DNA of 64,000 nt, from NCBI GenBank assembly GCA_016930235.1, contig JAFGHI010000042.1, forward strand, positions 2,550 to 66,549, in the 5' to 3' direction. This stretch comes from Candidatus Omnitrophota bacterium (GTDB taxonomy: Bacteria; Omnitrophota; Omnitrophia; Omnitrophales; Aquincolibacteriaceae). Under the pieces are notes generated by a model. That model saw only the letters and a program-made list of their open reading frames with translations, did no database searches and was not told the origin of the DNA. Shown one piece after another: positions 4,385 through 31,738 of the stretch (position 1 is its first letter; each line of letters begins with the position of its first letter). A program made the position numbers and the translations under genes.

Positions 4385-4474
4385 AGAATAATGTAATTCG
4401 TTTCTGCAATTTGGGTTAGCCATCAGATTTCGATTTTTTCCCTTCTTAAAATTCAATGCCTCCGATTTTTGAAG

Positions 4475-4530
4475 TTGAAAACTTCCTTTAAATTTGTAGA
4501 ATGACCCAAGAATTGTTCAGAAATTCACAA
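4475..4530 (+). promoter_or_regulatory. Sigma70-like promoter (TTGAAA-16-TAGAAT) with a Rex-operator-like palindrome TTGTTCAGAAATTCACAA at about +3
   Basis: TTGAAA at 4475-4480 and TAGAAT at 4497-4502. The 18-bp site at 4513-4530 resembles the Rex box consensus TTGTGAA-n4-TTCACAA and lies directly upstream of rex. Confidence 0.4.
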
Positions 4531-4543
4531 TTAAGAGGTTAAG

Positions 4544-5161
4544 TTGCGAAAAGTATCGCCTAAAACACTTACTCGGGCACTTTTTTATATCCGGACCTTA
4601 AACCGTCTGCTTCATTTAGGGGGATCGGTCGTTTCTTCTAAAGAGTTGGCGGATATTATGGGTTTCTCCGATGCTCAAGTCCGGAAAGATATTTCTAATT
4701 TTGGCAAGGTGGGGAAACCCCGTATCGGATATAAAGTCGCAGAGCTTAAACAAGTGCTGGAAGATTTCCTGGTTCAGGATGTGGTCCATGCGGCCCTTTT
4801 TGGAGTCGGGAATCTCGGGTCGGCCATCTTGAGATATTCCGGGTTTCATCAAAATAAAATCAAACTCGTGGCAGCTTTTGATATTGATAAGAATAAAATC
4901 GGAAAAACAATTAATGGAGTTCCTGTTTATGCGATGAAAGATATTCGTGAAATTGTGCGCAGGACGCATGTTGATATTGGTATCATCGCTGCCCCCGAAG
5001 AAGCAAGCCAGGACATTGCCGATTTAATCGTGGGTTCGGGCTTAAAGGGAATTGTTAATTTTGCGCCGACTTCCGTAAGTGTCCCCAAAGGAGTTTTTGT
5101 CAAGGACATTGATTTATCCATAGAATTTTTGTCACTTTTTTGCGACATGCAGCATTCATGA
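4544..5161 (+). CDS. rex: Redox-sensing transcriptional repressor Rex (paralog 1)
   Basis: N-terminal winged helix (SSKELADIMGFSDAQVRKDISNFGKVGKPRIGYKV) followed by a Rossmann NADH-binding domain (FGVGNLGSAIL). TTG start. Confidence 0.85.
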   Translation: MRKVSPKTLTRALFYIRTLNRLLHLGGSVVSSKELADIMGFSDAQVRKDISNFGKVGKPRIGYKVAELKQVLEDFLVQDVVHAALFGVGNLGSAILRYSGFHQNKIKLVAAFDIDKNKIGKTINGVPVYAMKDIREIVRRTHVDIGIIAAPEEASQDIADLIVGSGLKGIVNFAPTSVSVPKGVFVKDIDLSIEFLSLFCDMQHS

Positions 5162-5185
5162 TTTTTTCAGGGAGATTTCAAGAAC

Positions 5186-5557
5186 GTGCACGAGATGTCG
5201 ATTGCCCAAGGAATGATCGAGCAGATTGAGAAAATAGCTCAAGATTATGATGCGATACGAGTCACGAAAGTGGAAATCGAGACAGGTATTTTAAGGCAGG
5301 TCATCGCCGATGTGATGCAAACGGCGTTTCAAGCGGTGAGCGAGGGGACCCTTGCTGAAGGTTCGTTGCTTGAGCTGAGGGAAGTCCCGGCGCTTGCAGA
5401 ATGCCGGAAGTGTAAGATGTCATTTGAGCCGGAGATTGACAATTTTCTTTGTCCCCAATGCCATTTAGCGGATGTCAAAATCCTTCAGGGGGATGAAATC
5501 ATACTGAAATCGATGGAATGTGATTCCAAGGAGAAAAAAGAAACCCATGAAAATTAA
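5186..5557 (+). CDS. hypA: Hydrogenase nickel incorporation protein HypA
   Basis: N-terminal MHEMSIAQ and a C-terminal zinc ribbon CRKC...CPQC. Confidence 0.85.
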   Translation: MHEMSIAQGMIEQIEKIAQDYDAIRVTKVEIETGILRQVIADVMQTAFQAVSEGTLAEGSLLELREVPALAECRKCKMSFEPEIDNFLCPQCHLADVKILQGDEIILKSMECDSKEKKETHEN

Positions 5558-6230
5558 CGTTGTGAAACGTGTTCTCAATGCCAATGATTTGGTCGCGCAG
5601 GATAATCGTAAAAAGTTCAAGCAAGCGCAGGTCTTAGCTGTGAACTTCATCAGCTCGCCCGGGAGCGGGAAGACGACGCTTTTAGAGAAAACCATCCAGA
5701 AACTTTTGCCTGATGAAAAATCGATTGCGCTTGTTGGAGATCTTCAGACGACAAGAGATGCCGAAAGGCTTGCTCCGGGGGCTTTGCAGGCGACTCAAAT
5801 TAACACAGGGATGAGTTGTCATTTGTATGCGAATCAAGTGGCGGATGCGTTGAAGACACTCCCGCTTGCAAAGGCCGATTATCTTTTTATCGAAAATGTC
5901 GGCAATATGGTCTGTCCGGGTGAATTTGATTTGGGAGAAAATCTCAAAGTAGTGCTTCTGAGCATTCCGGAAGGGGATGACAAAGTTGCGAAATACCCGA
6001 CTATTTTTAGGGCGGCTGATCTCGTATTGATCACAAAGATCGATTTAATGGGTGCCTTGAGTTTCGATTTAAAAAGAATCCAGGATGATTTGGCAAAATT
6101 AAATGCCAACGTGCCTTTGATCCAATTATCCTCTTTGAAAGGGGACGGCATGGTGCCATGGATCCAGTGGTTGAAGGCCCAGCGTCGAAAAGGGATTGGG
6201 GCTCAAGCAAAATTTGTGACCGAGGAATAA
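5547..6230 (+). CDS. hypB: Hydrogenase nickel incorporation GTPase HypB
   Basis: P-loop GSGKTTLLEKT and a SIMIBI-class GTPase core. The start overlaps the hypA stop by 11 nt. Confidence 0.85.
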   Translation: MKINVVKRVLNANDLVAQDNRKKFKQAQVLAVNFISSPGSGKTTLLEKTIQKLLPDEKSIALVGDLQTTRDAERLAPGALQATQINTGMSCHLYANQVADALKTLPLAKADYLFIENVGNMVCPGEFDLGENLKVVLLSIPEGDDKVAKYPTIFRAADLVLITKIDLMGALSFDLKRIQDDLAKLNANVPLIQLSSLKGDGMVPWIQWLKAQRRKGIGAQAKFVTEE

Positions 6231-6268
6231 TATTTCCTCCAAAAAGATAGACAGTCTTTAATTATCTC

Positions 6269-6321
6269 TTGAAATAAATCTAAAAGTGAGTATAATAACT
6301 CAATTGTTACGAATTTCACGA
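6269..6321 (+). promoter_or_regulatory. Sigma70-like promoter (TTGAAA-16-TATAAT) with a Rex-like palindrome TTGTTACGAATTTCACGA at the predicted +1
   Basis: TTGAAA at 6269-6274 and TATAAT at 6291-6296, with the 18-bp imperfect Rex-box-like site at 6304-6321. It lies upstream of hoxF. Confidence 0.4.
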
Positions 6322-6426
6322 TTGAGTGGGATCGCGTACCTTCCTCGTCCTTTCCAGTAAAGGCCAAGAGGGCGTTTTTTTACATTGACCCCAAGAACCG
6401 ATAGAGAATGAATAAGGGTTATCTCC

Positions 6427-8238
6427 ATGAATAAGGATATCGAGAAGATTGTTAAGCAGGTTTGTGAATCGAATGGCCAGAACAAGACCAAGATGATGAA
6501 TATTGTGACCTCTCTGCAGGAGCGCTTGGGGGGGCTATCCGGTGACGTGATGGATCTCATTGCTAAGCAGACAAAAGTTCATCGGGTCGAGGTCGAAAGC
6601 ATTGTTTCCTTTTATTCCTTCCTCTCGAAAACCCCAAAAGGCAAGATTGTGATCAGACTTTGTAATGATATCGTTGATAAAATGCAGGGTGGGGAAGCTG
6701 TCCGGAAGGCTTTTTGCGACGAGTTAGGGGTCAAAATAGGCGGGACTACGCCTGATGGGAATATGACCTTGGAAGAAACACCGTGCATCGGTATGTGCGA
6801 CCAAGCTCCGGCAGCGTTAGTGAATGATGTTGTCTTCACTTATTTGTCGACCGATAAAGCGCGGGAGATTGTCCGCGAATTAAAAAAGCATGGTGACCCC
6901 AAAAAAATTCCGCATCGGCTCGGAGATGGCAATAACGCTCATGACTTGGTACGTTCCATGGTTCATAACGGCATTCGAAAGAAAGGGCCTGTTATTTTTT
7001 CGGATTATGAAGCTGAAAGCGGACTCAAAAAAGCGCTTGCCATGAGCCCTGTCGAAGTGATTCGGGAAGTCAAGATTGCGCGGCTTCGCGGACGAGGTGG
7101 CGCAGGATTCCCGACGGGGATGAAATGGGAATTTACGCGCGGTGCCGAAGGAACCCAAAAATTTGTTATCTGCAATGCGGATGAGGGGGAACCAGGGACC
7201 TTTAAAGACCGGGTTATCCTGACGGAAAAGTATGATCTGCTTTTTGAGGGAATGACAATCGGAGGATATGCGATTGGTTCAGATACGGGCATCCTGTATT
7301 TACGGGGTGAATACCTTTATTTGAAGGCTTTCCTCGAGGAAATGCTTGAGGACAGGCGCAAGAAAGGTTTGTTGGGTAAGGATATCCTTCATAAAAAGGG
7401 TTTTCACTTTGATATTCATATTCAAATAGGGGCGGGGGCCTACATTTGTGGTGAAGAAACATCACTGATCAGTTCTTGTGAGGGGCTGCGCGGAGATCCA
7501 AAAACACGGCCGCCATTTCCTGCTCAGAAGGGTTATTTAGGCTGTCCGACAACAGTCAATAACGTTGAAACATTTTGTTGTGTGGCGCGCATTATGGATC
7601 GTGGTGCCACTTGGTTTGCCGAGATTGGATCGAAAGGAAGTCCGAGTACAAAGTTGTTGAGCGTTTCAGGAGATTGTTCGGGGCCCGGTGTTTATGAGTT
7701 TCCTTTCGGGATCAAGGTCCGGGATTTACTCAAGGAGGTTGGAGCCGAGGATGTCCAAGCGGTTCTCATCGGTGGTCCGTCAGGTCAGATCATTGGCCCT
7801 TCGGATTTTGAGCGAACGATTTGCTACGATGATTTGCCGACGGGTGGATCAATCGTTATTTTCAATCAGGAAAGAAATATTCTGGAAGTCGTCAAAGAGT
7901 ATATGGATTTCTTTGTGGAGGAGAGTTGCGGCTATTGTACGCCTTGCCGTGTCGGTAATGTTTTGCTTCGAAATGGAATCGAGAACATCATCGAGGGCAA
8001 GGGGGAACCGAAAGATCTGGATTATTTGAAAGAATTGGGAGAATCCGTGAAAGTGACCAGCCGGTGCGGTTTGGGACAGACGTCTCCGAATCCGGTCCTC
8101 ACGACTTTAAAGAATTTCCGAGGAGTTTACGAAAAATTGGTCAAAAAAGACGAAAAGGGTTTTCAGCCGACTTTTGATGCAAAACGAGCGGTAGGCGATG
8201 CGGAGAAAGTGGCTGGGCGCGCATCCGTTCATTATTAA
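6427..8238 (+). CDS. hoxF: NAD(P)H-binding diaphorase subunit HoxF of bidirectional [NiFe] hydrogenase (NuoE-like domain fused to a NuoF-like domain)
   Basis: An N-terminal thioredoxin-like [2Fe-2S] module (C...CIGMCDQAP) precedes the NuoF signature GRGGAGFPTGMKWEF. FMN/NADH-binding glycines and the 4Fe-4S site ESCGYCTPCR...SRCGLGQ are present. Confidence 0.85.
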   Translation: MNKDIEKIVKQVCESNGQNKTKMMNIVTSLQERLGGLSGDVMDLIAKQTKVHRVEVESIVSFYSFLSKTPKGKIVIRLCNDIVDKMQGGEAVRKAFCDELGVKIGGTTPDGNMTLEETPCIGMCDQAPAALVNDVVFTYLSTDKAREIVRELKKHGDPKKIPHRLGDGNNAHDLVRSMVHNGIRKKGPVIFSDYEAESGLKKALAMSPVEVIREVKIARLRGRGGAGFPTGMKWEFTRGAEGTQKFVICNADEGEPGTFKDRVILTEKYDLLFEGMTIGGYAIGSDTGILYLRGEYLYLKAFLEEMLEDRRKKGLLGKDILHKKGFHFDIHIQIGAGAYICGEETSLISSCEGLRGDPKTRPPFPAQKGYLGCPTTVNNVETFCCVARIMDRGATWFAEIGSKGSPSTKLLSVSGDCSGPGVYEFPFGIKVRDLLKEVGAEDVQAVLIGGPSGQIIGPSDFERTICYDDLPTGGSIVIFNQERNILEVVKEYMDFFVEESCGYCTPCRVGNVLLRNGIENIIEGKGEPKDLDYLKELGESVKVTSRCGLGQTSPNPVLTTLKNFRGVYEKLVKKDEKGFQPTFDAKRAVGDAEKVAGRASVHY

Positions 8239-8262
8239 TCTATTTAACATAAGGGTTGAATT

Positions 8263-8985
8263 ATGGGGCAGACAATAAAATTTACGATTGATGGAACTGA
8301 AGTCAACGGACGTCCAGGCCAGACGATTATGGAAGCCGCCGATGAGGCAGGGGTTTATATCCCGCGTCTATGTTACCTGAAAGAATTAACGCCGCATGGC
8401 AGCTGCCGCGTTTGTACGGTCATCGTCAACGGCCGCCCGCAGACAGCTTGCACGCAGCCGATTGCTGACGGGATGACGGTTGAGAATAATACGCCGGAAC
8501 TGCTGGAGCATCGTAAGAACCTTGTTGATATGCTTTTTGTGGAGGGGAATCATTTTTGCATGTTCTGTGAAAAAAGCGGTAATTGTGAGCTTCAGGCGAT
8601 GGCTTACCGGTTGGGGATTCTGGCTCCTAAATATCCTTTTATGTTTCCGACTTGCGAGGTGGATGCTTCGCACCCCGACATCTTCATTGACCGCAACCGT
8701 TGTATCTTATGTGGACGATGTGTGCAGGCATCCAAAGATTTGGATGGCAAACACGTTTTTGATTTTGTCGGCCGCGGAGTTCATAAGAAGATCGCGGTGG
8801 ATGCAGAAGCAAAACTGGTGGATACGGATGCTGATGTGCGTGACAAAGCTGCGGAAGTTTGCCCCGTCGGGGCCATCTTAAAAAAGCACATAGGATTTTC
8901 AGTCCCTATTGGGAAACGTCTTTATGACCAAAAACCGATCGGATCGGAAATTGAAGAGAAAAAAATGACAAAGGTAAAAAGTTAA
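8263..8985 (+). CDS. hoxU: HoxU diaphorase iron-sulfur subunit (NuoG N-terminal-like)
   Basis: A 2Fe-2S ferredoxin fold (LCYLKELTPHGSCRVC) plus His/Cys-ligated 4Fe-4S motifs (HFCMFCEKSGNCELQ, CILCGRCVQ). Confidence 0.8.
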   Translation: MGQTIKFTIDGTEVNGRPGQTIMEAADEAGVYIPRLCYLKELTPHGSCRVCTVIVNGRPQTACTQPIADGMTVENNTPELLEHRKNLVDMLFVEGNHFCMFCEKSGNCELQAMAYRLGILAPKYPFMFPTCEVDASHPDIFIDRNRCILCGRCVQASKDLDGKHVFDFVGRGVHKKIAVDAEAKLVDTDADVRDKAAEVCPVGAILKKHIGFSVPIGKRLYDQKPIGSEIEEKKMTKVKS

Positions 8986-9003
8986 AGGTAGGGGAAGAAG
9001 AGT

Positions 9004-9549
9004 ATGGAGAAGCCAAAGGTTGCGACAGCGTCATTAGCAGGATGTTTTGGATGCCACATGTCAGTCCTTGATATCGATGAAAGGATCCTGAAGCTTGTGG
9101 AATTGATACGTTTCGATAAATCTCCCATTAACGATATCAAAGAGTTTACGGGCCGTTGTTTAGTAGGGTTGATCGAAGGGGGTTGCTGCAATGATGAGAA
9201 TGTCCATGTGCTTCGAAACTTCCGGGAGCATTGCGATATCCTTATTTCGTTGGGCGACTGTGCTGTCAATGGGGGTGTTCCTGCAATGCGTAACGGTATC
9301 CCTCTCCGGGAATGTTTAGAGGAAGCATACCTCAACGGCCCCACTGTTTATAATCCTAAAAAGATTATCCCCAACGACAAAGAAATTCCTCTTTGTCTGG
9401 ACAAGGTTTATCCTTGCCATCACGTTGTGAAGATCGATTATTTTCTTCCCGGATGCCCGCCTTCCGCGGACACGATTTGGGAAACCTTGGTTGCACTTTT
9501 AAATAATAAGCCGCTTGATTTGCCTTACGAATTGATCAAGTACGATTAA
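9004..9549 (+). CDS. hoxY: [NiFe] hydrogenase small subunit HoxY
   Basis: Proximal-cluster motif ASLAGCFGCHMS (NuoB/20-kDa-like), followed by distal Cys residues. Confidence 0.8.
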   Translation: MEKPKVATASLAGCFGCHMSVLDIDERILKLVELIRFDKSPINDIKEFTGRCLVGLIEGGCCNDENVHVLRNFREHCDILISLGDCAVNGGVPAMRNGIPLRECLEEAYLNGPTVYNPKKIIPNDKEIPLCLDKVYPCHHVVKIDYFLPGCPPSADTIWETLVALLNNKPLDLPYELIKYD

Positions 9550-9570
9550 TGACATTGGAGCTAGGAAAAC

Positions 9571-11013
9571 ATGAGTGATGAAAATCTGAAAAGAATTGTT
9601 ATTGAACCTGTTACGAGAGTTGAAGGGCACGGCAAAGTTTCGCTGTTGTTGGATGAGCAAAACTGCGTCAAACAGGCCCGTCTTCATATTGTTGAGTTCC
9701 GGGGTTTTGAACGCTTTATTCAAGGCCGTCCTTATTGGGAAATTCCGGTAACGGTCTCCCGCCTTTGCGGGATTTGTCCTGTGAGTCATCATCTAGCAGC
9801 AGCCAAGGCGATGGACCGCATTGTGGGCGGTGAAAAATTGACTCCTACCGCAGAAAAAGTCCGCCGGTTGATGCATTATGGGCAGATGTTTCAGTCTCAT
9901 GCGCTGCATTTCTTCCATCTTTGCTCACCGGATCTCCTCTTTGGTTTCGATGCAGACCCGGCCATCCGTAATGTTATCGGAGTTGCCGAGAGATTTCCGG
10001 AACTGGCCGTTCAAGCCGTCATGATGAGAAAATACGGGCAGGAGGCCATCCGTATCACGGCCGGGAAGAAAATTCATGGGACAGGTGCTATCCCCGGGGG
10101 CGTTAATAAAAACGTTTCCATTGAGGAAAGAGATTTTCTTTTAAAAGACCTGGATCAGATGATCAAATGGTCGCGTAGTGCTGTTCAGATTGCTAAAGAT
10201 TACACGGTTAAACATTTAAATGAGATCAAAGACTTTGGTTCGTTTGAGTCCAATCACTTGGGGTTTGTACGTGAGGACGGTGCCATGGACCTTTACCATG
10301 GCAATCTTCGGGCCTTGGATGCCGAGGGGAATGTCATTTTTGATCAGGTGGATTATCAGAATTATCTCGACTACATTGCCGAAGAAGTGAAACCGTGGTC
10401 GTACATGAAATTTCCTTTCATCAAATCAATCGGCCCGGAAAAAGGATGGTATCGCGTCGGTCCGCTTGCCCGGGTCAATATCTGCGATTTTATTGATACG
10501 CCGGAAGCGGAAAAGGAACGTAAGGAATTCAAGGCCCTTACGAAGGGCAAGCCCAATAATATTACGATGGCTTACCATTGGACTCGGATGATCGAAGTCT
10601 TGCATTCGATTGAGAAGATCAAAGAACTTCTGCATGACCGTGATTTGCAGGGAACGGATCTCGTTGTGAAGGGTAAGCGACGCGATGAGACGGTTGGCTT
10701 GATTGAGGCCCCGCGCGGGACTCTCTTTCATCATTACCGTGTCAATAAGGATGATCAGATCGAGATGGCTAATCTTATCGTTTCGACGACCAATAATAAT
10801 GAGCCGATGAATGCCGCGGTCAGAAAAGTTGCCCAAGACCACCTGAGCGGAAAACCGGAGATCACGGAAGGATTGCTGAATCACATTGAAGTGGCAATCC
10901 GGGCGTATGACCCTTGTCTTTCCTGTGCGACTCATGCCTTGGGGCAGATGCCGCTTGAAGTCAGTTTGTACGATCATGCAGGAAATCTTGTTGATCGGAA
11001 AGTTAAGTCTTGA
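9571..11013 (+). CDS. hoxH: [NiFe] hydrogenase large subunit HoxH (group 3d-like)
   Basis: N-terminal Ni-binding RLCGICPVSHH (RxCGxCxxxH) and C-terminal DPCLSCATHALG (DPCxxCxxH). The latter is followed by a short extension, consistent with cleavage by HoxW. Confidence 0.9.
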   Translation: MSDENLKRIVIEPVTRVEGHGKVSLLLDEQNCVKQARLHIVEFRGFERFIQGRPYWEIPVTVSRLCGICPVSHHLAAAKAMDRIVGGEKLTPTAEKVRRLMHYGQMFQSHALHFFHLCSPDLLFGFDADPAIRNVIGVAERFPELAVQAVMMRKYGQEAIRITAGKKIHGTGAIPGGVNKNVSIEERDFLLKDLDQMIKWSRSAVQIAKDYTVKHLNEIKDFGSFESNHLGFVREDGAMDLYHGNLRALDAEGNVIFDQVDYQNYLDYIAEEVKPWSYMKFPFIKSIGPEKGWYRVGPLARVNICDFIDTPEAEKERKEFKALTKGKPNNITMAYHWTRMIEVLHSIEKIKELLHDRDLQGTDLVVKGKRRDETVGLIEAPRGTLFHHYRVNKDDQIEMANLIVSTTNNNEPMNAAVRKVAQDHLSGKPEITEGLLNHIEVAIRAYDPCLSCATHALGQMPLEVSLYDHAGNLVDRKVKS

Positions 11014-11480
11014 ATGGAATCCCCAACAAAATTCTTTTGATTGGGTATGGCAATCCCGGACGGTTGGATGACGGGCTTGGTCCTGCGATCGCGGATGCCG
11101 TTGAAAAAATGGATTTGCCGGACGTTACAGTCGATTCTAATTATCAATTGACTGTGGAAGATGCCGCCAATCTGGCGACGCACGATGTCGTTATTTTTGC
11201 CGATGCGTCGGTGAAGGGGAAAGAACCGTTCTTTTTTAAAAAGATAGAACCCAAACCCGGCATGAATTTTAGTACGCATAGTATCGAGCCGGAAGGCGTT
11301 TTGGGATACGCCCATCAGCTGTTTGGGGCGAAAACGGTCGGATATACGTTAGGGATTCGGGGGTACCGTTTTAATGAGTTTGGTGAGGAGATTTCAGAGA
11401 AAGCGCTTAAAAATATGAAGCAGGCCCTGAAATTTCTCGAAGACGCAATCAAGGCAAAAGATTTTGTCGAGATCGAATAA
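11010..11480 (+). CDS. hoxW: Hydrogenase maturation endopeptidase (HoxW/HycI family)
   Basis: GYGNPGRLDDGLGPAIAD is characteristic of hydrogenase C-terminal maturation proteases. It overlaps the hoxH stop. Confidence 0.8.
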   Translation: MNGIPNKILLIGYGNPGRLDDGLGPAIADAVEKMDLPDVTVDSNYQLTVEDAANLATHDVVIFADASVKGKEPFFFKKIEPKPGMNFSTHSIEPEGVLGYAHQLFGAKTVGYTLGIRGYRFNEFGEEISEKALKNMKQALKFLEDAIKAKDFVEIE

Positions 11481-11518
11481 GATAATTTAAGAAGAGCATC
11501 GTTCAGAAGGAGTCAGAG

Positions 11519-11893
11519 ATGAAAGACGGCAAATATGTCATATTGACGATTGATGATGATCGGGAATTTCTTCAAACAGTCCGAATCGTTTTAGAAGCAA
11601 AAGGTTATGTCATTGAAGAGGCTCAAAGTGCTGAAGAAGGTTTAAAACGTTATAAAACAGTCCAGCCGGATCTTATCCTTGTGGATCTCATGATGGAAGA
11701 AGTTGACGCCGGTGCCAATTTTGTTAAGGAACTAAAATTGATGGGAAATAAGGCCCCGATTTATCTCCTCAGCGGGGCAGGTGACAGTATGTCATCGAGT
11801 ACCGATTACACGCAGCTAGGCTTTAGCGGTGTATTCCAAAAACCTATCAGTCCCGATAGACTTTTGGGAGTTATAAAGGCAAAACTTACATAA
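11519..11893 (+). CDS. Stand-alone response regulator receiver domain
   Basis: ILTIDDDREF...DLILVDLMMEE...YLLSGAG: a REC fold with no output domain. Confidence 0.75.
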   Translation: MKDGKYVILTIDDDREFLQTVRIVLEAKGYVIEEAQSAEEGLKRYKTVQPDLILVDLMMEEVDAGANFVKELKLMGNKAPIYLLSGAGDSMSSSTDYTQLGFSGVFQKPISPDRLLGVIKAKLT

Positions 11894-11989
11894 CCTAATT
11901 AGAATGAACAAGTTAGATTATAATAATTAGGTCCCTACCAGGATTATAAACAAGCCTATATATAGAAGAGAAATATTGCGGAGATATAA

Positions 11990-12069
11990 TGTGAATATAT
12001 TCACATATACTATTGATATATTCACAATAAATGCTATTATATTTATAGATAATGTGAAAGGAATCACAA
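11990..12069 (+). promoter_or_regulatory. Rex operator cluster upstream of rex paralog 2
   Basis: TGTGAATATATTCACA at 11990-12005 matches the Rex box core TGTGAA-n4-TTCACA. TTGATATATTCACAA at 12013-12027 is half-site-like, and TGTGAAAGGAATCACA lies at 12054-12069. A TTGATA-17-ATTATA promoter-like pair is embedded. Confidence 0.5.
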
Positions 12070-12070
12070 T

Positions 12071-12712
12071 ATGAAAAAGGCCAATAAAATCTTAGTGACG
12101 CGGCTTTACCGGTACCGGGATGCGATTTACCGCATGAAATATATGGGGCTTGTGAAGGTCTTTTCGGAAAACATTGCAGATGCCGTTGGCGTGACTTCTT
12201 CCCAAGTTCGGAAAGATTTTTCACTTTTTAAATTAAGTGGGAATAAGCGTGGCGGATACGTTATTGATGATTTGCTGAAAAAGATGAATGAGAGCCTTGG
12301 GAAAAACAGGACTCAGGATGTGATTATTGTGGGTTGCGGGCATATCGGAACGGCACTGAAGCTTTACAAGGGATTTGAGAAAAAGGGGATCAGGATTGTT
12401 GCCGGTTTTGACATCGATGAATCCAAAGTGACAAGAGACGCTAAGGTCCCGATCTTGCCATTTCAGGAGCTGAGTCAATTTATCAAGACGAAGAAAATAA
12501 AAATAGGTATTCTCGCTGTTCCCGAAACGGCCGCTCAACAAGTCTTAGATCAAATGGTTCAGGCGGGGATCGAAGGGATTTTGAATTTTGCGCCTATGCG
12601 GTTAAGCCATCAAGAGAATGTTGTTGTGAATAATGTGAATTTGGGTTTGGAGCTCGAGACGATCATATATTTCGTGGGCGAAATAGAAAAGAAGCAATAC
12701 GAGGAAAAGTGA
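12071..12712 (+). CDS. rex: Redox-sensing transcriptional repressor Rex (paralog 2)
   Basis: FSENIADAVGVTSSQVRKDFSLFKLSGNKRGGYVI winged helix, then a Rossmann domain IIVGCGHIGTAL. Confidence 0.8.
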   Translation: MKKANKILVTRLYRYRDAIYRMKYMGLVKVFSENIADAVGVTSSQVRKDFSLFKLSGNKRGGYVIDDLLKKMNESLGKNRTQDVIIVGCGHIGTALKLYKGFEKKGIRIVAGFDIDESKVTRDAKVPILPFQELSQFIKTKKIKIGILAVPETAAQQVLDQMVQAGIEGILNFAPMRLSHQENVVVNNVNLGLELETIIYFVGEIEKKQYEEK

Positions 12713-14553
12713 TGAAATTGAGTTCGAGGATCCTTATTTCATTTATGGCAACGATTGGTTTCTTGGGCGGCGCGACAGCTTTTTTCAGTTATCACCTGGT
12801 TGAGAAATATGTTGTCCAAAGAACCCAAGATCAAGTGATCGCGGATTTGAGGACGGTCGATGCTATGATCAAAAACCCGTTAGAAAGAATGGAAACGATG
12901 TTTCTCATGGTGCGGCCGGATGAAGACCTGGATCAATTCAAAAAAATGGCGGGTTTAGATTATCTCTATCTTGTGAAGGCTGAAGAACTCCCCCGGGTGA
13001 GGAGCGGAATAGTGAATAGAGTTATGCGGACAAAAACACAAACCGGAGGATACCGTCTGGTTGAAAAAGACGAGTTAATTGATTTCGGAAGTAAATATCA
13101 AGAACAGGCCTTGATTCCGGTTCGCATGACACCGAAAGCCACGAAGTCGGAAAAGACGGTTTTAGACAGTGCTATGAGCATGGAATATGCGAAGCCTTTT
13201 TTCAATGATTCGGGAGAAGTGGAATCCGTTTTATATGGTGGGAAAATCATGAATCGTTATTTCCAGTTTATTGATGATATCGTGGGTGCTGTTTTTGAAA
13301 ATAAACTTTATGATAATAAGCCTTTAGGGACGCTTACGATATTCTTGGACGATGTGCGTATTGCGACCAATGTTCTGGATGACCGCGGCCAGAGGGCTAT
13401 TGGGACAAGAGTTTCCAAAGAGGTTTATGAGCGCGTCGTGGTTCAAGGGGGGAGTTGGTTTGACCGCGCGTTTGTTGTGACGGACTGGTATTTAACGGCT
13501 TACGAGCCCATTCGGGATATAGACGGCCAGATCATCGGCATTTTGTATGTCGGTATTCTGGAGAAGCCCTTCAAGGATTTACAGGCACGCACCTTCTTTG
13601 CGTTTGCGATGATGATCCTTGCGGCTTCTGTGATGGCTATCTTCATTTCGTGGTTTCTCTCCCGGTCTTTGGCCAAACCGATGACCGAAATGGTCAAGAC
13701 GATTCGAAAGATCGAGAACGGAGAATTGGAGAGTCAAGTTGAGGTCAAGACAAGTTTGAAAGAAATCAATGAATTGACCCGTTCGTTCAATGAAATGGCG
13801 GGAAAGTTGGCGGAAAGGGAAAGGAGTTTGGCCGTCTCGAATGAAAAGCTTACGTCTTTAAATAAACGGTATCTTGACATGATTGGTTTTGTTTCGCATG
13901 AACTGTCAGGGATTTTGAATACGGCCGTCTTCAGTGTTTATTCACTGTCGCAGGAGATGTTAGGGGAAATTAATCTTAAGCAAAAACAAGTCCTGGACAC
14001 TCTGGCAAAGAGTTTGGACTATTTATCAACGATGGTCAGAAATTTCTTGAGTTTAAGCCGCGTAGAAAAGGGCGAATTAGCGCTCCAGAAAACCCCGGTC
14101 TATCTCAATGAAAATATTGTCGAGGAATCGCTTGCGGCGTTTAAAGCGCGTGTTTCTGAGCGGGGCATGAAAATCGTCAATCAGATTCCGGCTCAATTGC
14201 AAGTGCTTGCGGATCCGGACATGATCAAAATTGTTGTCAATAATCTCGTAACGAATGCCATCAAGTACGGGGTCGAAAAGGGTTCGATCATCATGAGTGC
14301 AAGGGTCCAGGAGGAGAGGGTCGAGGTGGAATTTTATAATGACGGTGAGCCCATCACCGATGATGAGCGCGAGAAATTATTCAAAAGGTTTTCGCGGTTG
14401 CAGAATGTCCAAGGCAAGGGCAAAGGAACGGGCTTGGGGCTTTTCATCACAAAAGAAATTATTGAAGCTCATCGGGGCCGGATATGGCTTGAAACCAAAC
14501 CATTTGGGAATGCCTTTGTTTTTACCTTGGAAAAAGGAAAGATGAATTCATGA
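12709..14553 (+). CDS. Sensor histidine kinase (N-terminal TM plus a large periplasmic sensor domain, HAMP, HisKA, HATPase_c)
   Basis: H-box FVSHELSGILN, N-box NLVTNAIKYG, G-boxes GTGLGLFI; two TM segments flank a roughly 270-aa extracytoplasmic domain. Confidence 0.8.
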   Translation: MMKLSSRILISFMATIGFLGGATAFFSYHLVEKYVVQRTQDQVIADLRTVDAMIKNPLERMETMFLMVRPDEDLDQFKKMAGLDYLYLVKAEELPRVRSGIVNRVMRTKTQTGGYRLVEKDELIDFGSKYQEQALIPVRMTPKATKSEKTVLDSAMSMEYAKPFFNDSGEVESVLYGGKIMNRYFQFIDDIVGAVFENKLYDNKPLGTLTIFLDDVRIATNVLDDRGQRAIGTRVSKEVYERVVVQGGSWFDRAFVVTDWYLTAYEPIRDIDGQIIGILYVGILEKPFKDLQARTFFAFAMMILAASVMAIFISWFLSRSLAKPMTEMVKTIRKIENGELESQVEVKTSLKEINELTRSFNEMAGKLAERERSLAVSNEKLTSLNKRYLDMIGFVSHELSGILNTAVFSVYSLSQEMLGEINLKQKQVLDTLAKSLDYLSTMVRNFLSLSRVEKGELALQKTPVYLNENIVEESLAAFKARVSERGMKIVNQIPAQLQVLADPDMIKIVVNNLVTNAIKYGVEKGSIIMSARVQEERVEVEFYNDGEPITDDEREKLFKRFSRLQNVQGKGKGTGLGLFITKEIIEAHRGRIWLETKPFGNAFVFTLEKGKMNS

Positions 14554-14583
14554 GTTAATATTGGATTTGAACGGAAAGGGGTT

Positions 14584-15099
14584 TTGTGGATGGAAACGGC
14601 AGAATTGAAGGAGACGGTCCAAAATATTGTCAATGAATGGAAGGATCGGGAGGGGAATTTAATCATGATTCTTCATCAGATCCAAAACCGATATGGGTAT
14701 GTCCCGCGGGAAGTTTCCCTTCAGCTTTCAGAACTTCTGGATATCCCGCTGGCGCGGATTTATGAAGTGCTCACGTTTTATCACTATTTCAAAATTGTGA
14801 AACCGGGAAAACACCGAGTGTCGGTCTGTATGGGGACGGCTTGTTATCTCAACGGTGCTCCCGGGCTCCTTAACGAGTTGGAACATTTACTTGGGGTTAG
14901 CGCCGGAGAAACGACCCAAGACGGTTTATTTCAAGTCGAGGTTGTGAGGTGTTTGGGGTGCTGCGGTCTAGCGCCCGTGATGACTGTTGACGGCAAGATT
15001 TTTAGCAGCGTCCAAAAAGATGATATCGCTAAAATATTATCCGATTACTCACATAAAGAACCCATTTTTTCGAGCGGTGATACGGGGAGTCAGGCATGA
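14584..15099 (+). CDS. hndA: [FeFe] hydrogenase NuoE-like [2Fe-2S] subunit (HndA/HydC)
   Basis: Thioredoxin-like ferredoxin Cys motifs CMGTACYLNG and VVRCLGCCGLAPV. Confidence 0.8.
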   Translation: MWMETAELKETVQNIVNEWKDREGNLIMILHQIQNRYGYVPREVSLQLSELLDIPLARIYEVLTFYHYFKIVKPGKHRVSVCMGTACYLNGAPGLLNELEHLLGVSAGETTQDGLFQVEVVRCLGCCGLAPVMTVDGKIFSSVQKDDIAKILSDYSHKEPIFSSGDTGSQA

Positions 15100-15452
15100 A
15101 AAAACTGAGCGTTGACGATTTGAGTGCGATGAGAAAGGAATTGAAGAAAAAGAAGGGCAGTTGGATACGTGTCGGCTGCAGCACGTGCGGCATTGCCGCA
15201 GGCGCCAAAGAAGTTTTCGATACTCTGAAAGAAGAAATTCAAAAGCGTGATTTGAAGAGTCTCGAGGTCAAACAATGCGGCTGTATTGGGATGTGCTATG
15301 CGGAGCCCTTGGTTGAAGTCATGATCGAAGGGATGCCTAAGGTCTTTTACGGCAAGGTCGACAAAGATGTGGCTTTAAAAATTGTTGAGAAACATGTTTG
15401 CGGGAAGATGTTGCTGAACGATCGTATTTATGATGCCAAGAGGAGCCGGTAG
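15096..15452 (+). CDS. hndB: Small thioredoxin-like [2Fe-2S] ferredoxin subunit (HndB-like)
   Basis: CSTCG...CGCIGMC Cys pattern in a 118-aa protein, placed between hndA and hndC as in Hnd-type NADP-reducing hydrogenases. Confidence 0.6.
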   Translation: MKKLSVDDLSAMRKELKKKKGSWIRVGCSTCGIAAGAKEVFDTLKEEIQKRDLKSLEVKQCGCIGMCYAEPLVEVMIEGMPKVFYGKVDKDVALKIVEKHVCGKMLLNDRIYDAKRSR

Positions 15453-15471
15453 AAAGGCCGGAAAGGGAATT

Positions 15472-17214
15472 ATGGAAAAGCGGGTTTTTATTAAAGATAC
15501 AAATCATGTCGGGAAAAAAGAGAGAACACGGGACTTCTACACGGCTTTTTTAGCGCAGTTAAGGGAAAGAAAGCTGGAAAATGACGTTCAGTTGATCCGT
15601 GTCGCGGACATCGGAGCGTACAACCAGGGTTTTGTGGTGCACATTTATCCCGATGATTTTCTTTACAGCAATGTTGAGATGCAAGATATCCCGAGAATGA
15701 TCGAGGAAAGTATCCTCGGAGGAAAGAAAATCGATGATCTTGTTTGTCATCACATTTCCAAGCAATTTCGTATTGTCTTACGGAACTGCGGCGTAATTGA
15801 TCCTAGAAATATTGATGAGTACATTGTCCATGACGGTTATCAGGCGATCGAGAAGATATTGTCAGGCTATACACCGGAGAAAGTGTTAGAGGAGTTGAAG
15901 ACAAGCGGTTTGCGCGGACGCGGCGGTGCGGGATATCCCACTTGGCTCAAATGGCAGTTTACCCGGAATGTTCCATCGGATCAGAAATATGTGATCTGTA
16001 ACGGGGATGAAGGAGATCCCGGGGCTTATATGGACCGAAGCGTTCTCGAAGGTGATCCCCATTCGGTGATCGAAGGGATGATGATCGCAGGCTATGTGAT
16101 CGGTGCCACGAAAGGGTATTTTTATATCCGGGCGGAATATCCTCTTGCAATCGAACGGGTCAAGAATGCCATCAGCCAGGCGTACCAATATGGACTTCTC
16201 GGAGAAAATATTTTGGGGACTGATTTTCGTTTTGATCTAGAGATCCGTTTGGGGGCGGGGGCCTTTGTTTGCGGTGAGGAAACCGCTTTGATCGCTTCCA
16301 TTGAGGGCAAGCGGGGTTATCCCAGGCCAAGACCTCCTTATCCTTCAGTCAAGGGGTTATGGGATAAACCAACCGTCATCAATAATGTGGAAACGCTGGC
16401 CAATATCCCGGTTGTCATTTTGCAGGGTGGTGCCTGGTTCTCGAATATCGGAACGGGTGCTTCAAAAGGGACCAAGGTGTTTGCTTTAACCGGAAAGGTC
16501 AAGAATTCGGGCCTGGTGGAAGTTCCGATGGGAACAACCTTAAGGGAGATTGTTTACGACATCGGTGGAGGATCAGCGAGTCAGGCGAAGGTCAAAGCCA
16601 TTCAAACGGGGGGACCTTCTGGAGGAGTGATCCCTGAGGATTTTCTGGATACGCCGGTGAGTTATGAGAGTCTTCAAAAATTAGGGTCCATTATGGGTTC
16701 AGGCGGGATGATTGTGATGGACGCAAACGATTGCATGGTGGATATCGCGAAATTTTATCTTCGGTTTTGCGTCGATGAGTCATGCGGAAAATGTACGCCT
16801 TGCCGGGTGGGAGGCACCCAAATGCTGAATTTGCTTGAACGTGCCTCCGAAGGGACGGGGAAGAGGGAGGATATCGAAAAACTGAAAAAAATATCGCTGG
16901 CGATGCAGAGAGCATCCTTATGCGGTCTGGGTCAAACCGCGCCGAATCCTGTTCTTTCAACGTTACGGTATTTTGAAGATGAATACCTCGCGCATATCGA
17001 GGAGAAAAAGTGTCCCGCATGCCGTTGCGGAGCGCTCTTCCGTTATTCAATTATTCAAGAGAAATGCAAGAACTGCGGATTATGCGCCAAGAATTGTCCG
17101 GCGGGGGCTATTTTGGGAGACCGGGAAAGCGGTTATACCCTTGATCAGGAAAAATGCACTCGCTGCGGACGTTGTTTTGAAGTTTGCCGTTTGGGGGCAA
17201 TTTTCCGAGGATAA
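15472..17214 (+). CDS. hndC: [FeFe] hydrogenase NAD(P)H-binding flavoprotein subunit (HndC/HydB, NuoF-like with C-terminal 2x[4Fe-4S] ferredoxin)
   Basis: GRGGAGYPTWLKWQF and ESCGKCTPCR...CGLGQ (NuoF). The C-terminal CPACRCG...CKNCGLCAKNCP...CTRCGRCFEVC is a two-cluster ferredoxin. Start chosen at ATG 15472, which has an AGGGA ribosome-binding site upstream. Upstream in-frame ATGs at 15430 and 15433 are possible. Confidence 0.85.
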   Translation: MEKRVFIKDTNHVGKKERTRDFYTAFLAQLRERKLENDVQLIRVADIGAYNQGFVVHIYPDDFLYSNVEMQDIPRMIEESILGGKKIDDLVCHHISKQFRIVLRNCGVIDPRNIDEYIVHDGYQAIEKILSGYTPEKVLEELKTSGLRGRGGAGYPTWLKWQFTRNVPSDQKYVICNGDEGDPGAYMDRSVLEGDPHSVIEGMMIAGYVIGATKGYFYIRAEYPLAIERVKNAISQAYQYGLLGENILGTDFRFDLEIRLGAGAFVCGEETALIASIEGKRGYPRPRPPYPSVKGLWDKPTVINNVETLANIPVVILQGGAWFSNIGTGASKGTKVFALTGKVKNSGLVEVPMGTTLREIVYDIGGGSASQAKVKAIQTGGPSGGVIPEDFLDTPVSYESLQKLGSIMGSGGMIVMDANDCMVDIAKFYLRFCVDESCGKCTPCRVGGTQMLNLLERASEGTGKREDIEKLKKISLAMQRASLCGLGQTAPNPVLSTLRYFEDEYLAHIEEKKCPACRCGALFRYSIIQEKCKNCGLCAKNCPAGAILGDRESGYTLDQEKCTRCGRCFEVCRLGAIFRG

Positions 17215-17260
17215 TGGGTCATTGAGATAAATAGAATAGGCATAAAAAGGAGTCCATACG

Positions 17261-19006
17261 ATGGTGAATGCGGTCATTAACGGGATGGCAGTGGAGGTCG
17301 AGAAAGGAACGACGATCCTTGATGCAGCCAAAAAAGTGCAGGTTAAAATTCCGACGCTTTGCAAGCATCCGGATCTGACGGCTTCGGCCGCTTGTGGTCT
17401 TTGTATCGTGCGGTTGACGGGGTCCAACAAAATGCTCCGTGCCTGCTCGACACCCCTTGAAGAGGGGATGGATATCGTCACTCATGATCCTGAAATTATT
17501 GATGTCCGCAGGACCATCGTCGAACTCATTTTGTCCAATCATCCGAATGATTGCCTGAAATGCGGCCGCAATGGCGATTGTGAATTGCAGACGTTAGTTG
17601 CCGAGTTTGGAATCCGCGAAGAAAGGTTCGAGAAAATTTTAAAGGACATCCCCAAGGATGATTCTACGGGAACGATGGTTTTGGAACCGCAGAAGTGTAT
17701 TAAGTGCGGCCGCTGCGTCGAAGTTTGCCAGGATATGCAGGATGTCTGGGCGCTCTCCTTTCTGGAGAGGGGATTTCACACAAGGATTTCACCGGCCGGG
17801 GATATTAAATTGGCCGATTCACCCTGTGTACGGTGCGGGCAATGTGCCGCGCACTGTCCGACGGGGGCCATCTTTGAAAAGGATGATGTCGAGAAGGTAT
17901 GGAAAGCGATCCAGGATCCGGAGAAATACTGTGTTGTTCAAATCGCACCAGCGGTCAGGGTGGCGATCGGAGAGGCTTTTGGTTTTAAACCCGGTACGAA
18001 TTTAACGCGCAAGCTCTATGCGTTACTCAAGAGGATAGGATTTAAGGCGGTTTTCGATACGAATTTCGGGGCGGATGTCACCATTATGGAAGAAGGCTCC
18101 GAGTTTGTTCAGCGGTTTGTCCATAAAAAGGGAAAGCTGCCGCTGATTACGACATGCTGCCCTTCGTGGGTCGATTTTATGGAAAAGTTCCACGGGGACA
18201 TGATCGACTATTTTTCGTCCTGCAAGTCGCCCCATGAAATCCTGGGAGTGTTGTCAAAAACTTATTATGCGCAGGAGAAAAAAATTGATCCGGCAAAAAT
18301 GGTTGTCGTTTCGATCATGCCGTGCACCTCGAAAAAATATGAGATTACGAGAACCAACGAAATGTTTGCTTCAGGGTATCAGGATGTCGACATTGTCCTC
18401 ACGACCCGGGAACTTGCGCGAATGGTTAAGCAGTCGGGCCTGGATTTTGCAGATCTTCCTGAAGAGGATCCTGACCATATGCTGGGGGATTACACGGGGG
18501 CCGGTGTTATCTTTGGTGCGACAGGCGGTGTGATGGAAGCGGCTTTGAGGACGGCTTATTTTATGGTGACTGAAGAAAAGCTCCCCAAGGTCCAGTTTAC
18601 AAGTGTCCGTGGGTTAAAGGGAATTAAGGAAACCGTGATCAGGATCGGAGAATCAGATATCCGGATTGCCGTGGCCCATGGTTTGGCCAATGTGGAATAC
18701 GTCCTCCAACGTGTCCGGGAGGCAATCCAAAGGAACGAAGAACCTCCTTATCACTTCATTGAGGTGATGGCTTGCTTAGGGGGGTGTGTCGGCGGGGGCG
18801 GACAGCCTTATGGTGTAACCGATGAACTCAGGAAGCTGAGGGCGCAAGGGCTTTATCATGACGATGAAAATCAAGAGATCCGTTGTTCTCATGACAATCC
18901 TTATGTCCAGAAACTGTATCACGAATTTTTAGGGAAACCTTTGGGAAAGAGGTCGCATGAGCTTCTGCATACGGAGTATCACCCGCGGCCTATTTACAGG
19001 AAATAA
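17261..19006 (+). CDS. hydA: [FeFe] hydrogenase catalytic subunit (HydA/HndD)
   Basis: H-cluster motifs TSCCPSW (L1), MPCTSKKYE (L2) and EVMACLGGCVGGGGQP (L3). Also an N-terminal 2Fe-2S ferredoxin domain and accessory 4Fe-4S motifs. Confidence 0.9.
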   Translation: MVNAVINGMAVEVEKGTTILDAAKKVQVKIPTLCKHPDLTASAACGLCIVRLTGSNKMLRACSTPLEEGMDIVTHDPEIIDVRRTIVELILSNHPNDCLKCGRNGDCELQTLVAEFGIREERFEKILKDIPKDDSTGTMVLEPQKCIKCGRCVEVCQDMQDVWALSFLERGFHTRISPAGDIKLADSPCVRCGQCAAHCPTGAIFEKDDVEKVWKAIQDPEKYCVVQIAPAVRVAIGEAFGFKPGTNLTRKLYALLKRIGFKAVFDTNFGADVTIMEEGSEFVQRFVHKKGKLPLITTCCPSWVDFMEKFHGDMIDYFSSCKSPHEILGVLSKTYYAQEKKIDPAKMVVVSIMPCTSKKYEITRTNEMFASGYQDVDIVLTTRELARMVKQSGLDFADLPEEDPDHMLGDYTGAGVIFGATGGVMEAALRTAYFMVTEEKLPKVQFTSVRGLKGIKETVIRIGESDIRIAVAHGLANVEYVLQRVREAIQRNEEPPYHFIEVMACLGGCVGGGGQPYGVTDELRKLRAQGLYHDDENQEIRCSHDNPYVQKLYHEFLGKPLGKRSHELLHTEYHPRPIYRK

Positions 19007-19139: not shown

Positions 19140-19394
19140 ATGGAAAGGCGAATCGGATTTGTCGGGATCTTAGTTGAAAGCAGGAAAAAGACGGCGGCCA
19201 TGATCAATCAGATTTTATCGGATTTTGCGGAAATTATTGTCGCCCGGGTCGGGGTTCCTTATAAGGAAAGAAATGTTTCCGTGATTACCCTGATTGTGGA
19301 TGCGACGAGTGATGAGATCGGAGCCCTGACCGGGAAATTGGGATCATTAGACGGGGTTTCGGTCAAGTCGGCGTTTGCGAAAAACGGCGGTTAG
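19140..19394 (+). CDS. Putative iron-only hydrogenase system regulator (TM1266-like, ACT/NikR-C-like small protein)
   Basis: 84 aa. The pattern GILVE.R......IN.IL..F...I..R.G.PY.E.N.S.I.L...T.DEIGALTGKLG...GV.VK matches the small family found next to hydEFG loci. Assignment is from memory of that family. Confidence 0.55.
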   Translation: MERRIGFVGILVESRKKTAAMINQILSDFAEIIVARVGVPYKERNVSVITLIVDATSDEIGALTGKLGSLDGVSVKSAFAKNGG

Positions 19395-19429
19395 TCCGGA
19401 CTATTCATTATTTTTAAAGGAGAAATGGG

Positions 19430-22185: not shown

Positions 22186-22204
22186 TTAAAATAGGGATGA
22201 GGTC

Positions 22205-23215: not shown

Positions 23216-23239
23216 AATTGCTGTCTGAGAAAACAAGGG

Positions 23240-25615: not shown

Positions 25616-25886
25616 GATGTGTTTGGCCGTGCCGGGTAAGATTATAAGCATTACAAATGAAGGGACTCTTGAACGGAAGGGAAAAGTCAGTTTCGGGGGT
25701 GTGATGCGGGATGTCAATCTTGCTTACGTGCCCGAGGCCCAAATCGGAAATTATGTCGTTGTTCATGTTGGAGTTGCCATTAACATATTAGATGAAAGTG
25801 AGGCTATGAAAGTGTTTGATTATCTTAAAGAAATAAACGAACTCAATGAACTTGAAAACAAGGAAGGGGGCGAGAGCCATGAGTAA
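25608..25886 (+). CDS. hypC: [NiFe] hydrogenase maturation chaperone HypC
   Basis: The N-terminal MCLAVPGKI is the conserved HypC/HupF start. Confidence 0.85.
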   Translation: MFEMCLAVPGKIISITNEGTLERKGKVSFGGVMRDVNLAYVPEAQIGNYVVVHVGVAINILDESEAMKVFDYLKEINELNELENKEGGESHE

Positions 25887-31732: not shown

Positions 31733-31738
31733 ACCGCT

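Follow-up and report, generated by a model that had tools for sequence, protein, structure and literature searches.

Repression by the redox-sensing regulator Rex of hydrogenases that consume NADH (reduced nicotinamide adenine dinucleotide, NAD), and of rex itself, is already established, and Rex-hydrogenase control is known in Firmicutes. In Caldicellulosiruptor bescii, electrophoretic mobility shift assays revealed Rex binding upstream of [FeFe] and [NiFe] hydrogenase genes, of hydG and of its own gene, which the authors read as repression (PMC6391272), and in Thermoanaerobacterium saccharolyticum ech-hyp, hfs and hydG have predicted Rex sites upstream (PMC5886521). The general Rex operator consensus is given as TTGTGAA-N4-TTCACAA (PMC6391272), the Clostridiaceae operator as TTGTTAA-N4-TTAACAA (PMC8457756) and that of Rex/RSP of Thermoanaerobacter ethanolicus as ATTGTTA-N6-TAACAAT (PMC5886521). 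Here, we describe a stretch of 64,000 nucleotides (nt) from a Candidatus Omnitrophota bacterium (assembly GCA_016930235.1, contig JAFGHI010000042.1, positions 2,550-66,549, forward strand; hereafter the window) that encodes two Rex paralogs. The rex1 gene is clustered with hypAB and hoxFUYHW, and rex2 is the first gene of an operon with a histidine kinase and an [FeFe] hydrogenase. Four boxes lie upstream of rex1, hoxF and rex2, and we consider it likely that they are the operators of the two Rex repressors encoded adjacent to them, acting by classical Rex repression; both NADH-linked hydrogenases and both rex genes would probably be switched on as NADH accumulates. The new element that our comparisons support is a putative Omnitrophota Rex regulon with a Hox-type [NiFe] hydrogenase, the hybrid operator and the two apparently specialised paralogs being modestly novel.

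The locus is reminiscent of C. bescii and C. saccharolyticus, in which operators matching TTGTGAANNNNTTCACAA stand at a bifurcating [FeFe] operon, a [NiFe] operon, a maturation gene and rex (PMC6391272). However, C. bescii is a Firmicute whose regulon was worked out with one Rex, whereas the window has two paralogs, each linked to one hydrogenase, and two box variants. Furthermore, the C. bescii [NiFe] enzyme is of the membrane-bound Ech type and that of the window of the soluble NAD-linked Hox type, and the window regulon is a predicted one from an uncultured bacterium. In C. bescii, Rex targets include pyruvate:ferredoxin oxidoreductase and hydG, whereas their window counterparts carry no Rex box. 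The matrix scan of the window described below found none upstream of acs, the TM1266-like gene, hydF, hypF, the pyruvate:ferredoxin oxidoreductase gene or hypD, and none on any maturation gene or oxidoreductase gene of the downstream region 19140-32909.

An earlier sequence-only reading of this DNA had listed rex1 and hoxF promoters with 16-nt spacers and boxes at 4513-4530 and 6304-6321, and these are present exactly as listed (Table 1). In a consensus promoter scan of positions 4300-12800 the hoxF promoter ranked first (11/12) and the rex1 promoter second (10/12). The rex1 box starts 8 nt past the -10 hexamer and ends 11 nt short of the rex1 start codon, and the hoxF box begins 5 nt after its -10 hexamer; they differ from TTGTGAANNNNTTCACAA at two and three positions, respectively. 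Both are consistent hybrids, in which one half is GTT(A/C), as in clostridial/Thermoanaerobacter operators, and the other is the canonical TTCAC. The likeness lies in the promoter-proximal half, (A)ATTGTT(A/C), which recalls the Clostridiaceae and Thermoanaerobacter Rex/RSP operators TTGTTAANNNNTTAACAA and ATTGTTANNNNNNTAACAAT (PMC8457756, PMC5886521), whereas the other half of the window boxes is TTCAC(A/G)A and not TAACAA. These mixed half-site types suggest that the rex1/hoxF operator is a fixed hybrid with a single orientation relative to the promoter. The boxes thus have the form of the 18-20 base pair (bp) inverted repeat that characterizes Rex operators, the deviating half TTGTT(A/C) being a documented clostridial/RSP half-site (PMC8457756, PMC5886521).

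Upstream of rex2, the box reported at 11990-12005 was found as listed, and the one reported at 12054-12069 really occupies 12053-12068, one base off. The second box overlaps the rex2 ribosome-binding site and ends 2 nt short of the ATG. A further half-site proposed between them does exist as a sequence, but it consists mainly of the -35 hexamer, and its TTCACAA part is shared by no ortholog; we therefore rejected it as a separate conserved operator.

Table 1. Predicted regulatory sites and genes of the rex-hydrogenase region; positions are those of the window (aa, amino acids).
Feature	Position	Strand	Details
Predicted sigma-70-type promoter of rex1-hypAB	4475..4502	+	TTGAAA 4475-4480, 16-nt spacer, TAGAAT 4497-4502; 10/12 consensus matches
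Predicted Rex1-type operator AATTGTTCAGAAATTCACAATT at rex1	4511..4532	+	18-bp core TTGTTCAGAAATTCACAA 4513-4530; ortholog-only matrix 26.5 bits
Predicted promoter of hoxFUYHW-RR	6269..6296	+	TTGAAA 6269-6274, 16-nt spacer, TATAAT 6291-6296; 11/12 consensus matches
Predicted Rex1-type operator AATTGTTACGAATTTCACGATT at hoxF	6302..6323	+	18-bp core TTGTTACGAATTTCACGA 6304-6321, extended dyad 6299-6326; ortholog-only matrix 29.1 bits
Terminator-like hairpin in predicted hoxF 5' leader	6346..6381	+	stem-loop 6346-6374, then seven T 6375-6381
Predicted Rex2-type operator box 1 TGTGAATATATTCACA	11990..12005	+	ends 7 nt upstream of -35 hexamer; 2 mismatches to consensus
Predicted rex2 promoter	12013..12040	+	TTGATA, 16-nt spacer, TATTAT, TG preceding -10 hexamer; consensus scan
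'Half-site' TTGATATATTCACAA (rejected)	12013-12027	+	contains predicted -35 hexamer TTGATA plus TTCACAA
Predicted Rex2-type operator box 2 TGTGAAAGGAATCACA	12053..12068	+	starts 12 nt past -10 hexamer; 2 mismatches to consensus
rex1	4544..5161	+	redox-sensing repressor Rex, 205 aa, TTG start codon
hypA, nickel metallochaperone	5186..5557	+	Pfam PF01155
hypB, nickel-inserting GTPase	5547..6230	+	Pfam PF02492; ATG at 5547 agrees with public gene call (L001, 227 aa)
hoxF	6427-8238	+	Pfam; NAD-linked [NiFe] hydrogenase cluster 6427..11480
hoxU	8263-8985	+	Pfam
hoxY	9004-9549	+	Pfam
hoxH	9571-11013	+	Pfam
hoxW, maturation protease	11010-11480	+	TIGR00072, 65.5 bits vs cut-off 47.45
Stand-alone response-regulator receiver (RR), final hox-cluster gene	11519..11893	+	Pfam PF00072
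rex2, second Rex paralog	12071..12712	+	213 aa; Pfam, NCBIfam NF003996
sCache-HAMP histidine kinase	12709-14553	+	Pfam; rex2 operon (rest of operon 12709..19006)
NuoE-like protein	14584-15099	+	Pfam; rex2 operon
Small 2Fe-2S protein	15096-15452	+	Pfam; rex2 operon
NuoF-like protein	15430-17214	+	Pfam; rex2 operon
[FeFe] hydrogenase HydA	17261-19006	+	NF040763 (NADH-dependent [FeFe] hydrogenase group A6), 806 bits vs cut-off 765

Rex1 orthologs (55-66% identity) occur widely in Omnitrophota and in related genomes of the Planctomycetota-Verrucomicrobiota-Chlamydiota (PVC) group, and their loci keep the order rex1-hypA-hypB-(CBS gene)-hoxFUYH. Eleven rex1, cbiM-rex1 and hoxF promoters from seven genomes were aligned (alignment A1: two promoters each from the window, L096, L107 and L108, and one each from L015, L098 and L100). 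Each of them has TTGmAA, a 16-17-nt spacer and TAnAnT, and each has a 22-bp box, AAT(T/C)GTT(A/C)-N4-(T/A)TTCAC(G/A)ATT (AATyGTT-N6-TTCACrATT), starting 5-18 nt past the -10 hexamer. The mean column identity is 58%, and full invariance is confined to AAT.GTT and TTCAC of the box and to three bases (the T, T and A of TTGnAA) of the -35 hexamer. The boxes and their position relative to the sigma-70-type hexamers have been kept in other Omnitrophota/PVC-group genomes whose Rex proteins are about 60-66% identical, while the flanking DNA has diverged. The hoxF promoter and its box are conserved in L015, L096, L098, L100, L107 and L108. Equivalents of the rex1 promoter, with 16-17-nt spacers, occur in L096, L107 and L108, the last having a near-identical box, AATTGTTCTAAATTTCACAATT, at a position equal to that of the window's rex1 box. 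In L015, rex1 lies directly behind another gene, so that this locus contributed no rex1 promoter to the comparison.

Two variations at rex1 promoters were observed. In L107 (3871-5003) and L108 (3944-5003), a gene for a cbiM-type nickel/cobalt transporter is located between the Rex1-type box and rex1, and because of this arrangement metal uptake may share control with hypAB and hox. In L098 (5908-6003) and L100 (5904-6003), the rex1 promoters contain GTTAC-N16-GTAAC, an inverted repeat extending across the ribosome-binding site, and nikR lies 2-4 kilobases (kb) upstream. The repeat resembles a published one of the NikR type and may serve as a NikR operator in place of Rex autoregulation.

Rex2 orthologs (~60% identity) head [FeFe] hydrogenase operons, rex2 being the first gene in such clusters of L102-L106. 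Seven rex2 promoters were aligned (alignment A2), with TTGACA-like -35 hexamers, 16-17-nt spacers and TAnAnT lined up in L082 and L102-L105. In six of the seven promoters a full box, (T/A)GTGAA-N4-(T/A)TCACA, precedes the -35 hexamer with a gap of 6-8 nt. At the second box the TGTGAA motif is invariant (7/7). It follows the -10 hexamer at a distance of 11-13 nt, and the motif, which overlaps the ribosome-binding site, is separated from the ATG by 2-5 nt. Conservation upstream of orthologs and of rex itself was therefore found for both box types, in 11 A1 and seven A2 promoters, and the distinction between the types also holds in a second genome with both paralogs (L102 and L107). The sCache-HAMP kinase gene accompanies rex2 in the window, L102, L103 and L105, immediately downstream except in L105, and several of the rex2 [FeFe] operons also carry a receiver-only regulator behind hydA. 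A metagenome scan with Rex2 yielded one true ortholog (L082), the 13 other matches being unrelated Rossmann-fold proteins.

The four sites also stand out within the window. At two or fewer mismatches to TTGTGAA-N4-TTCACAA, three matches were found in 64 kb versus 0.40 expected, and none of 100 shuffles reached three. Weight matrices were then built solely from the orthologous sites of other genomes and scanned over both strands of the 64 kb. The rex1-type matrix scored the hoxF and rex1 sites at 29.1 and 26.5 bits, against a next best hit of 15.9 and a shuffle maximum of 19.5. With the rex2-type matrix, the rex2 boxes scored 20.4 and 17.8 bits and the next best hit 15.6; the 95th percentile of the shuffles was 17.4 and their maximum 18.6, so that the weaker box is less clearly distinct. 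The ortholog-only matrices thus single out exactly the four sites, and there is no cross-scoring of the two box types between the rex1-type and rex2-type matrices. A scan of 162 kb of orthologous loci gave no sites beyond those already known.

Similar boxes were found upstream of hoxF well outside the Omnitrophota. A scan with HoxF retrieved 80 loci (60-72% identity) from Planctomycetota, Myxococcota, Spirochaetota, Acidobacteriota and other phyla, and boxes were counted in 78 hoxF upstream regions of 300 nt, with 200 dinucleotide-preserving shuffles. At two or fewer mismatches, 10 of the 78 regions contain a box (0.15 expected, shuffle maximum 2), and at three or fewer, 20 of the 78 (1.4 expected, shuffle maximum 6). 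This enrichment indicates that Rex-type control of the hox cluster may be recurrent rather than specific to the window genome. Recurrent boxes at clusters of hoxFUYHW and a receiver gene in many anaerobic phyla would extend Rex control from the [FeFe]/Ech enzymes of Firmicutes to NAD-linked Hox-type [NiFe] enzymes. Three Phycisphaerae-type loci (L028, L036 and L047) have two or three tandem TGTGAA-N4-TTCACA boxes, located 120-170 and 50-100 nt upstream of hoxF, and no rex gene lies within 10 kb in these loci. The common flanks of their boxes, ATTGTGAAC..TTTCACAT, suggest a related regulon.

Both regulators combine PF06971 with PF02629, that is, the N-terminal winged-helix DNA-binding domain and the C-terminal Rossmann NAD(H)-binding domain of the Rex architecture. 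Rex1 scores 205.3 bits with NCBIfam NF003995 (curated cut-off 126) and Rex2 237.7 bits with NF003996 (cut-off 138). Solved Rex structures are matched by the two proteins at E-values of 1e-28 to 1e-37, B. subtilis Rex (PDB 2VT2) at 5.7e-37 by Rex1 and 6e-36 by Rex2, and proteins identical to Rex1 and Rex2 are annotated as Rex in a Candidatus Omnitrophica metagenome-assembled genome. The GxGxxG motif and the acidic residue after beta-2 are present (GVGNLG and AFDID in Rex1, GCGHIG and GFDID in Rex2) and kept across 120 members of each clade. Judged by these matches, both regulators are genuine Rex family members. The Rex-box reading of the sites in the earlier note is accordingly supported by the conservation and fixed position of the boxes at promoters of orthologs, and by both proteins being Rex.

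The paralogs differ at the residues that form a switch triad in Rex of Thermus aquaticus, Arg16/Tyr98/Asp188 (PMC6125430). Rex1 has R17, Y98 and D190 at these positions, present in 120, 118 and 120 of the 120 clade members, respectively. Rex2 has D17 at the Arg16 position, a clade-invariant Tyr at the Tyr98 position and Asn at the Asp188 position; across its clade, Asn occupies the Arg16 position in 100/120 members and the Asp188 position in 119/120. Because the Arg16 and Asp188 positions are replaced, the salt bridge reported from the open state that binds DNA would be absent from the Rex2 clade. There are functional Rex proteins with Met (Thermotoga maritima) or His (RSP) at switch positions, so that these residues do not disqualify Rex2 as a Rex. 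In the recognition helix, Rex1 has SNFG, the Rex2 clade S(L/I)FG and the window Rex2 SLFK; elsewhere, the TTGTTA-binding RSP has NNFG and canonical Rex proteins SYFG. Such correlations between switch and helix residues may hint at paralog-specific operators and thresholds. Relative to the Rex proteins of Streptomyces coelicolor, T. aquaticus and Bacillus subtilis (1XCB, 3IKT, 2VT2), the winged-helix and Rossmann-fold organization is shared, Rex1 keeps the switch triad (PMC6125430) and the rex2 boxes match the canonical operator, whereas the Rex2 clade has Asn at Asp188 and the putative window targets are hydrogenases rather than respiratory or fermentation genes. Two divergent rex genes per genome, ~35% identical to each other, are also found in Clostridium thermocellum (Rex_2471 and Rex_1799; PMC8457756); there, however, the motif was determined for one paralog, whereas each window paralog is associated with its own conserved promoter architecture and box variant.

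By gene content both hydrogenases are NADH-linked, one combining a HoxFU diaphorase with a [NiFe] enzyme and the other being a group A6 NADH-dependent [FeFe] enzyme, which would make derepression triggered by NADH physiologically sensible. From the features above we infer the transcription starts, the assignment of paralogs to boxes, repression and the response to NADH. At low NADH/NAD+, a Rex dimer would occupy the 22-bp box located 5-8 nt downstream of the -10 hexamer at rex1-hypAB and hoxFUYHW-RR, and the bound protein would block RNA polymerase binding or promoter escape. A roadblock mechanism had been envisaged for these two promoters; since the box falls within the RNA polymerase footprint, occlusion of binding or escape is likelier than an elongation roadblock and promoter occlusion would be the more apt description. 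Likewise, the boxes had all been placed at the transcription start, which fits rex1 and hoxF, whose boxes lie just after the -10 hexamer, but not rex2, where the best box is upstream of the -35 hexamer and only the weaker second box is near the start. At the rex2 promoter, Rex would bind both boxes, box 2 being at about +6 to +21. The box centres are 63 bp apart in the window (~six helical turns) and 62-65 bp apart in the orthologs; that they flank the core promoter on the same helix face suggests cooperative clamping or looping. As NADH rises, Rex would close and leave the DNA, derepressing the [NiFe] Hox and the group A6 [FeFe] Hyd hydrogenases, which oxidise NADH and evolve H2, as well as nickel insertion (hypAB) and both rex genes, the latter amounting to negative autoregulation. 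Since the Omnitrophota are uncultured and little is known of their gene regulation, this would provide a concrete, testable model for how H2 production is matched to NADH load.

A more elaborate version, which we regard as a tentative and somewhat doubtful possibility, is that the paralogs constitute two insulated NADH-sensing circuits with different NADH/NAD+ thresholds. Rex1, with the canonical Arg/Tyr/Asp switch and Asn for Tyr in the recognition helix, would read the hybrid operator AATyGTT-N6-TTCACrATT at the transcription start and govern the nickel and [NiFe] Hox branch. Rex2, an Asn-for-Asp switch variant paired with the sCache histidine kinase, would read the canonical TGTGAA boxes flanking the core promoter and govern the [FeFe] bifurcating hydrogenase branch. 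In that case the cell would use its two hydrogenases at different redox states. Paired paralogs with distinct boxes and a fixed switch-residue difference would also represent a natural experiment on the evolution of Rex specificity and threshold.

Several observations weigh against taking the boxes as Rex operators. The promoter-proximal half is GTT(A/C) in all 11 A1 sites and never GTGA, which is unusual for the operator of a homodimer, and the hoxF box matches the canonical consensus only with three mismatches. The rex1 promoters of L098 and L100 retain just the left half of the box, which implies that rex1 autoregulation is less conserved than hox control. At rex2, the -35 hexamer is preceded by box 1, as would be more typical of an activator site, and only the window has a good match (ATCACA) in the right half of box 2, which is degenerate in the orthologs. 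A terminator-like hairpin between the hox box and hoxF further complicates a simple promoter-operator picture. Finally, the TGTGA-N6-TCACA core is also that of CRP-type sites, a geometry common to both, and this raises the alternative that a CRP/FNR-family regulator binds the boxes and Rex is merely encoded nearby. Box 1 of rex2, centred at about -50 from the predicted start, would be activator-like, and most box-carrying hoxF loci of other phyla have no rex gene within 10 kb. Nevertheless, the boxes track rex genes, occurring directly upstream of rex1 (or cbiM-rex1) and rex2 in several genomes, and those of rex1 and hoxF lie downstream of the -10 hexamer, where a repressor would be expected. 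Sites of the CRP/FNR type would be TGTGA-N6-TCACA near -41.5 or -61.5, but the rex1 and hoxF boxes have GTT instead of GTGA, a documented Rex variant (PMC8457756, PMC5886521), and the distance of rex2 box 1 fits neither position. The flanks also suit Rex, with T before TGTGA in 16/18 sites, A after it in 11/18 and T before TCACA in 11/18. We consider a CRP/FNR-type regulator very unlikely.

The palindromes might instead act in RNA, forming stem-loops at the 5' terminus that modulate translation or make the mRNA more stable. The hoxF box and its flanks together would indeed fold, at the predicted 5' end, as a hairpin of 9 bp (-7.7 kcal/mol, z = -2.9, equalled by 0/200 shuffles), and rex2 box 2 overlaps the ribosome-binding site. 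However, the rex1 box folds poorly (-2.3 kcal/mol, equalled by 38/200 shuffles), rex2 box 1 is upstream of the promoter and would stay untranscribed, and the two halves of box 2 lack complementarity in the orthologs. What is conserved is sequence rather than pairing: in L098 and L100, AATCGT stands opposite ACAATT, a C-A mismatch with neither a compensatory change nor any other covariation, so that outer-arm pairing is not maintained. This favours a protein-binding site over an RNA stem, and a role in RNA is highly improbable. The regulator could also be a nickel-responsive one such as NikR acting at the rex1-type box, given that cbiM, hypAB and hox are all nickel-related; the transporter gene that in L107 and L108 follows this box and precedes rex1 would fit this, as would the nearby nikR and the GTTAC-N16-GTAAC repeat of L098 and L100. 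Yet no nikR or cbiM homolog was found in the 64-kb window, the window boxes lack a GTAAC partner, their invariant right half, TTCAC(G/A)A, corresponds to the canonical Rex half-site, and the transcription factor inside the regulated operon is Rex, which together leave NikR scarcely credible. As for chance matches in AT-rich intergenic DNA, the count at three or fewer mismatches to TTGTGAANNNNTTCACAA is in line with expectation (six found in the 64-kb window versus 4.5 expected, not significant), four of the six being located in the intergenic DNA ahead of rex1, hoxF and rex2. This explanation is effectively refuted by the enrichment at two or fewer mismatches, by the recovery of exactly these sites with ortholog-only matrices, by the invariant A1 and A2 blocks amid diverged flanks, and by the 14- to 60-fold excess over dinucleotide shuffles across the 78 hoxF upstream regions.

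The hairpin in the predicted hoxF leader has a folding energy of -10.1 kcal/mol, and 18/200 shuffles fold equally well; the fold of the whole leader has a z-score of +0.57. No counterpart was found in the orthologous leaders of L015, L096, L098, L100, L107 and L108. Every hox transcript from the predicted promoter would need to read through it. The hairpin could be the terminator of rex1-hypAB or an attenuator; the attenuator model for the hoxF leader was dropped because the structure is neither significant nor conserved. A scan of positions 4300-12800 against Rfam identified no RNA family, which indicates that the hoxF leader and the boxes are not known riboswitches.

Genes were assigned by Pfam and NCBIfam profile searches of the window proteins, and the region is a hydrogen-metabolism supercluster. 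Positions 19140-32909 encode a TM1266-like putative regulator of the [FeFe] system, hydF, two radical-SAM genes in the positions of hydG and hydE, hypF, a probable hypC (25617-25845), a pyruvate:ferredoxin oxidoreductase gene, hypD and an AIR-synthase-type gene in the position of hypE. Further downstream, a 1998-aa open reading frame lies within 41740-47736. The hoxFUYHW order is common to the related loci from the HoxF scan that extend far enough downstream, hoxW having been found in 69 of the 80. A receiver homolog follows hoxW within 400 nt in 63 of these 69 loci, from many phyla (L002-L081); the receiver therefore appears to be a conserved, uncharacterised member of the hoxFUYHW cluster.

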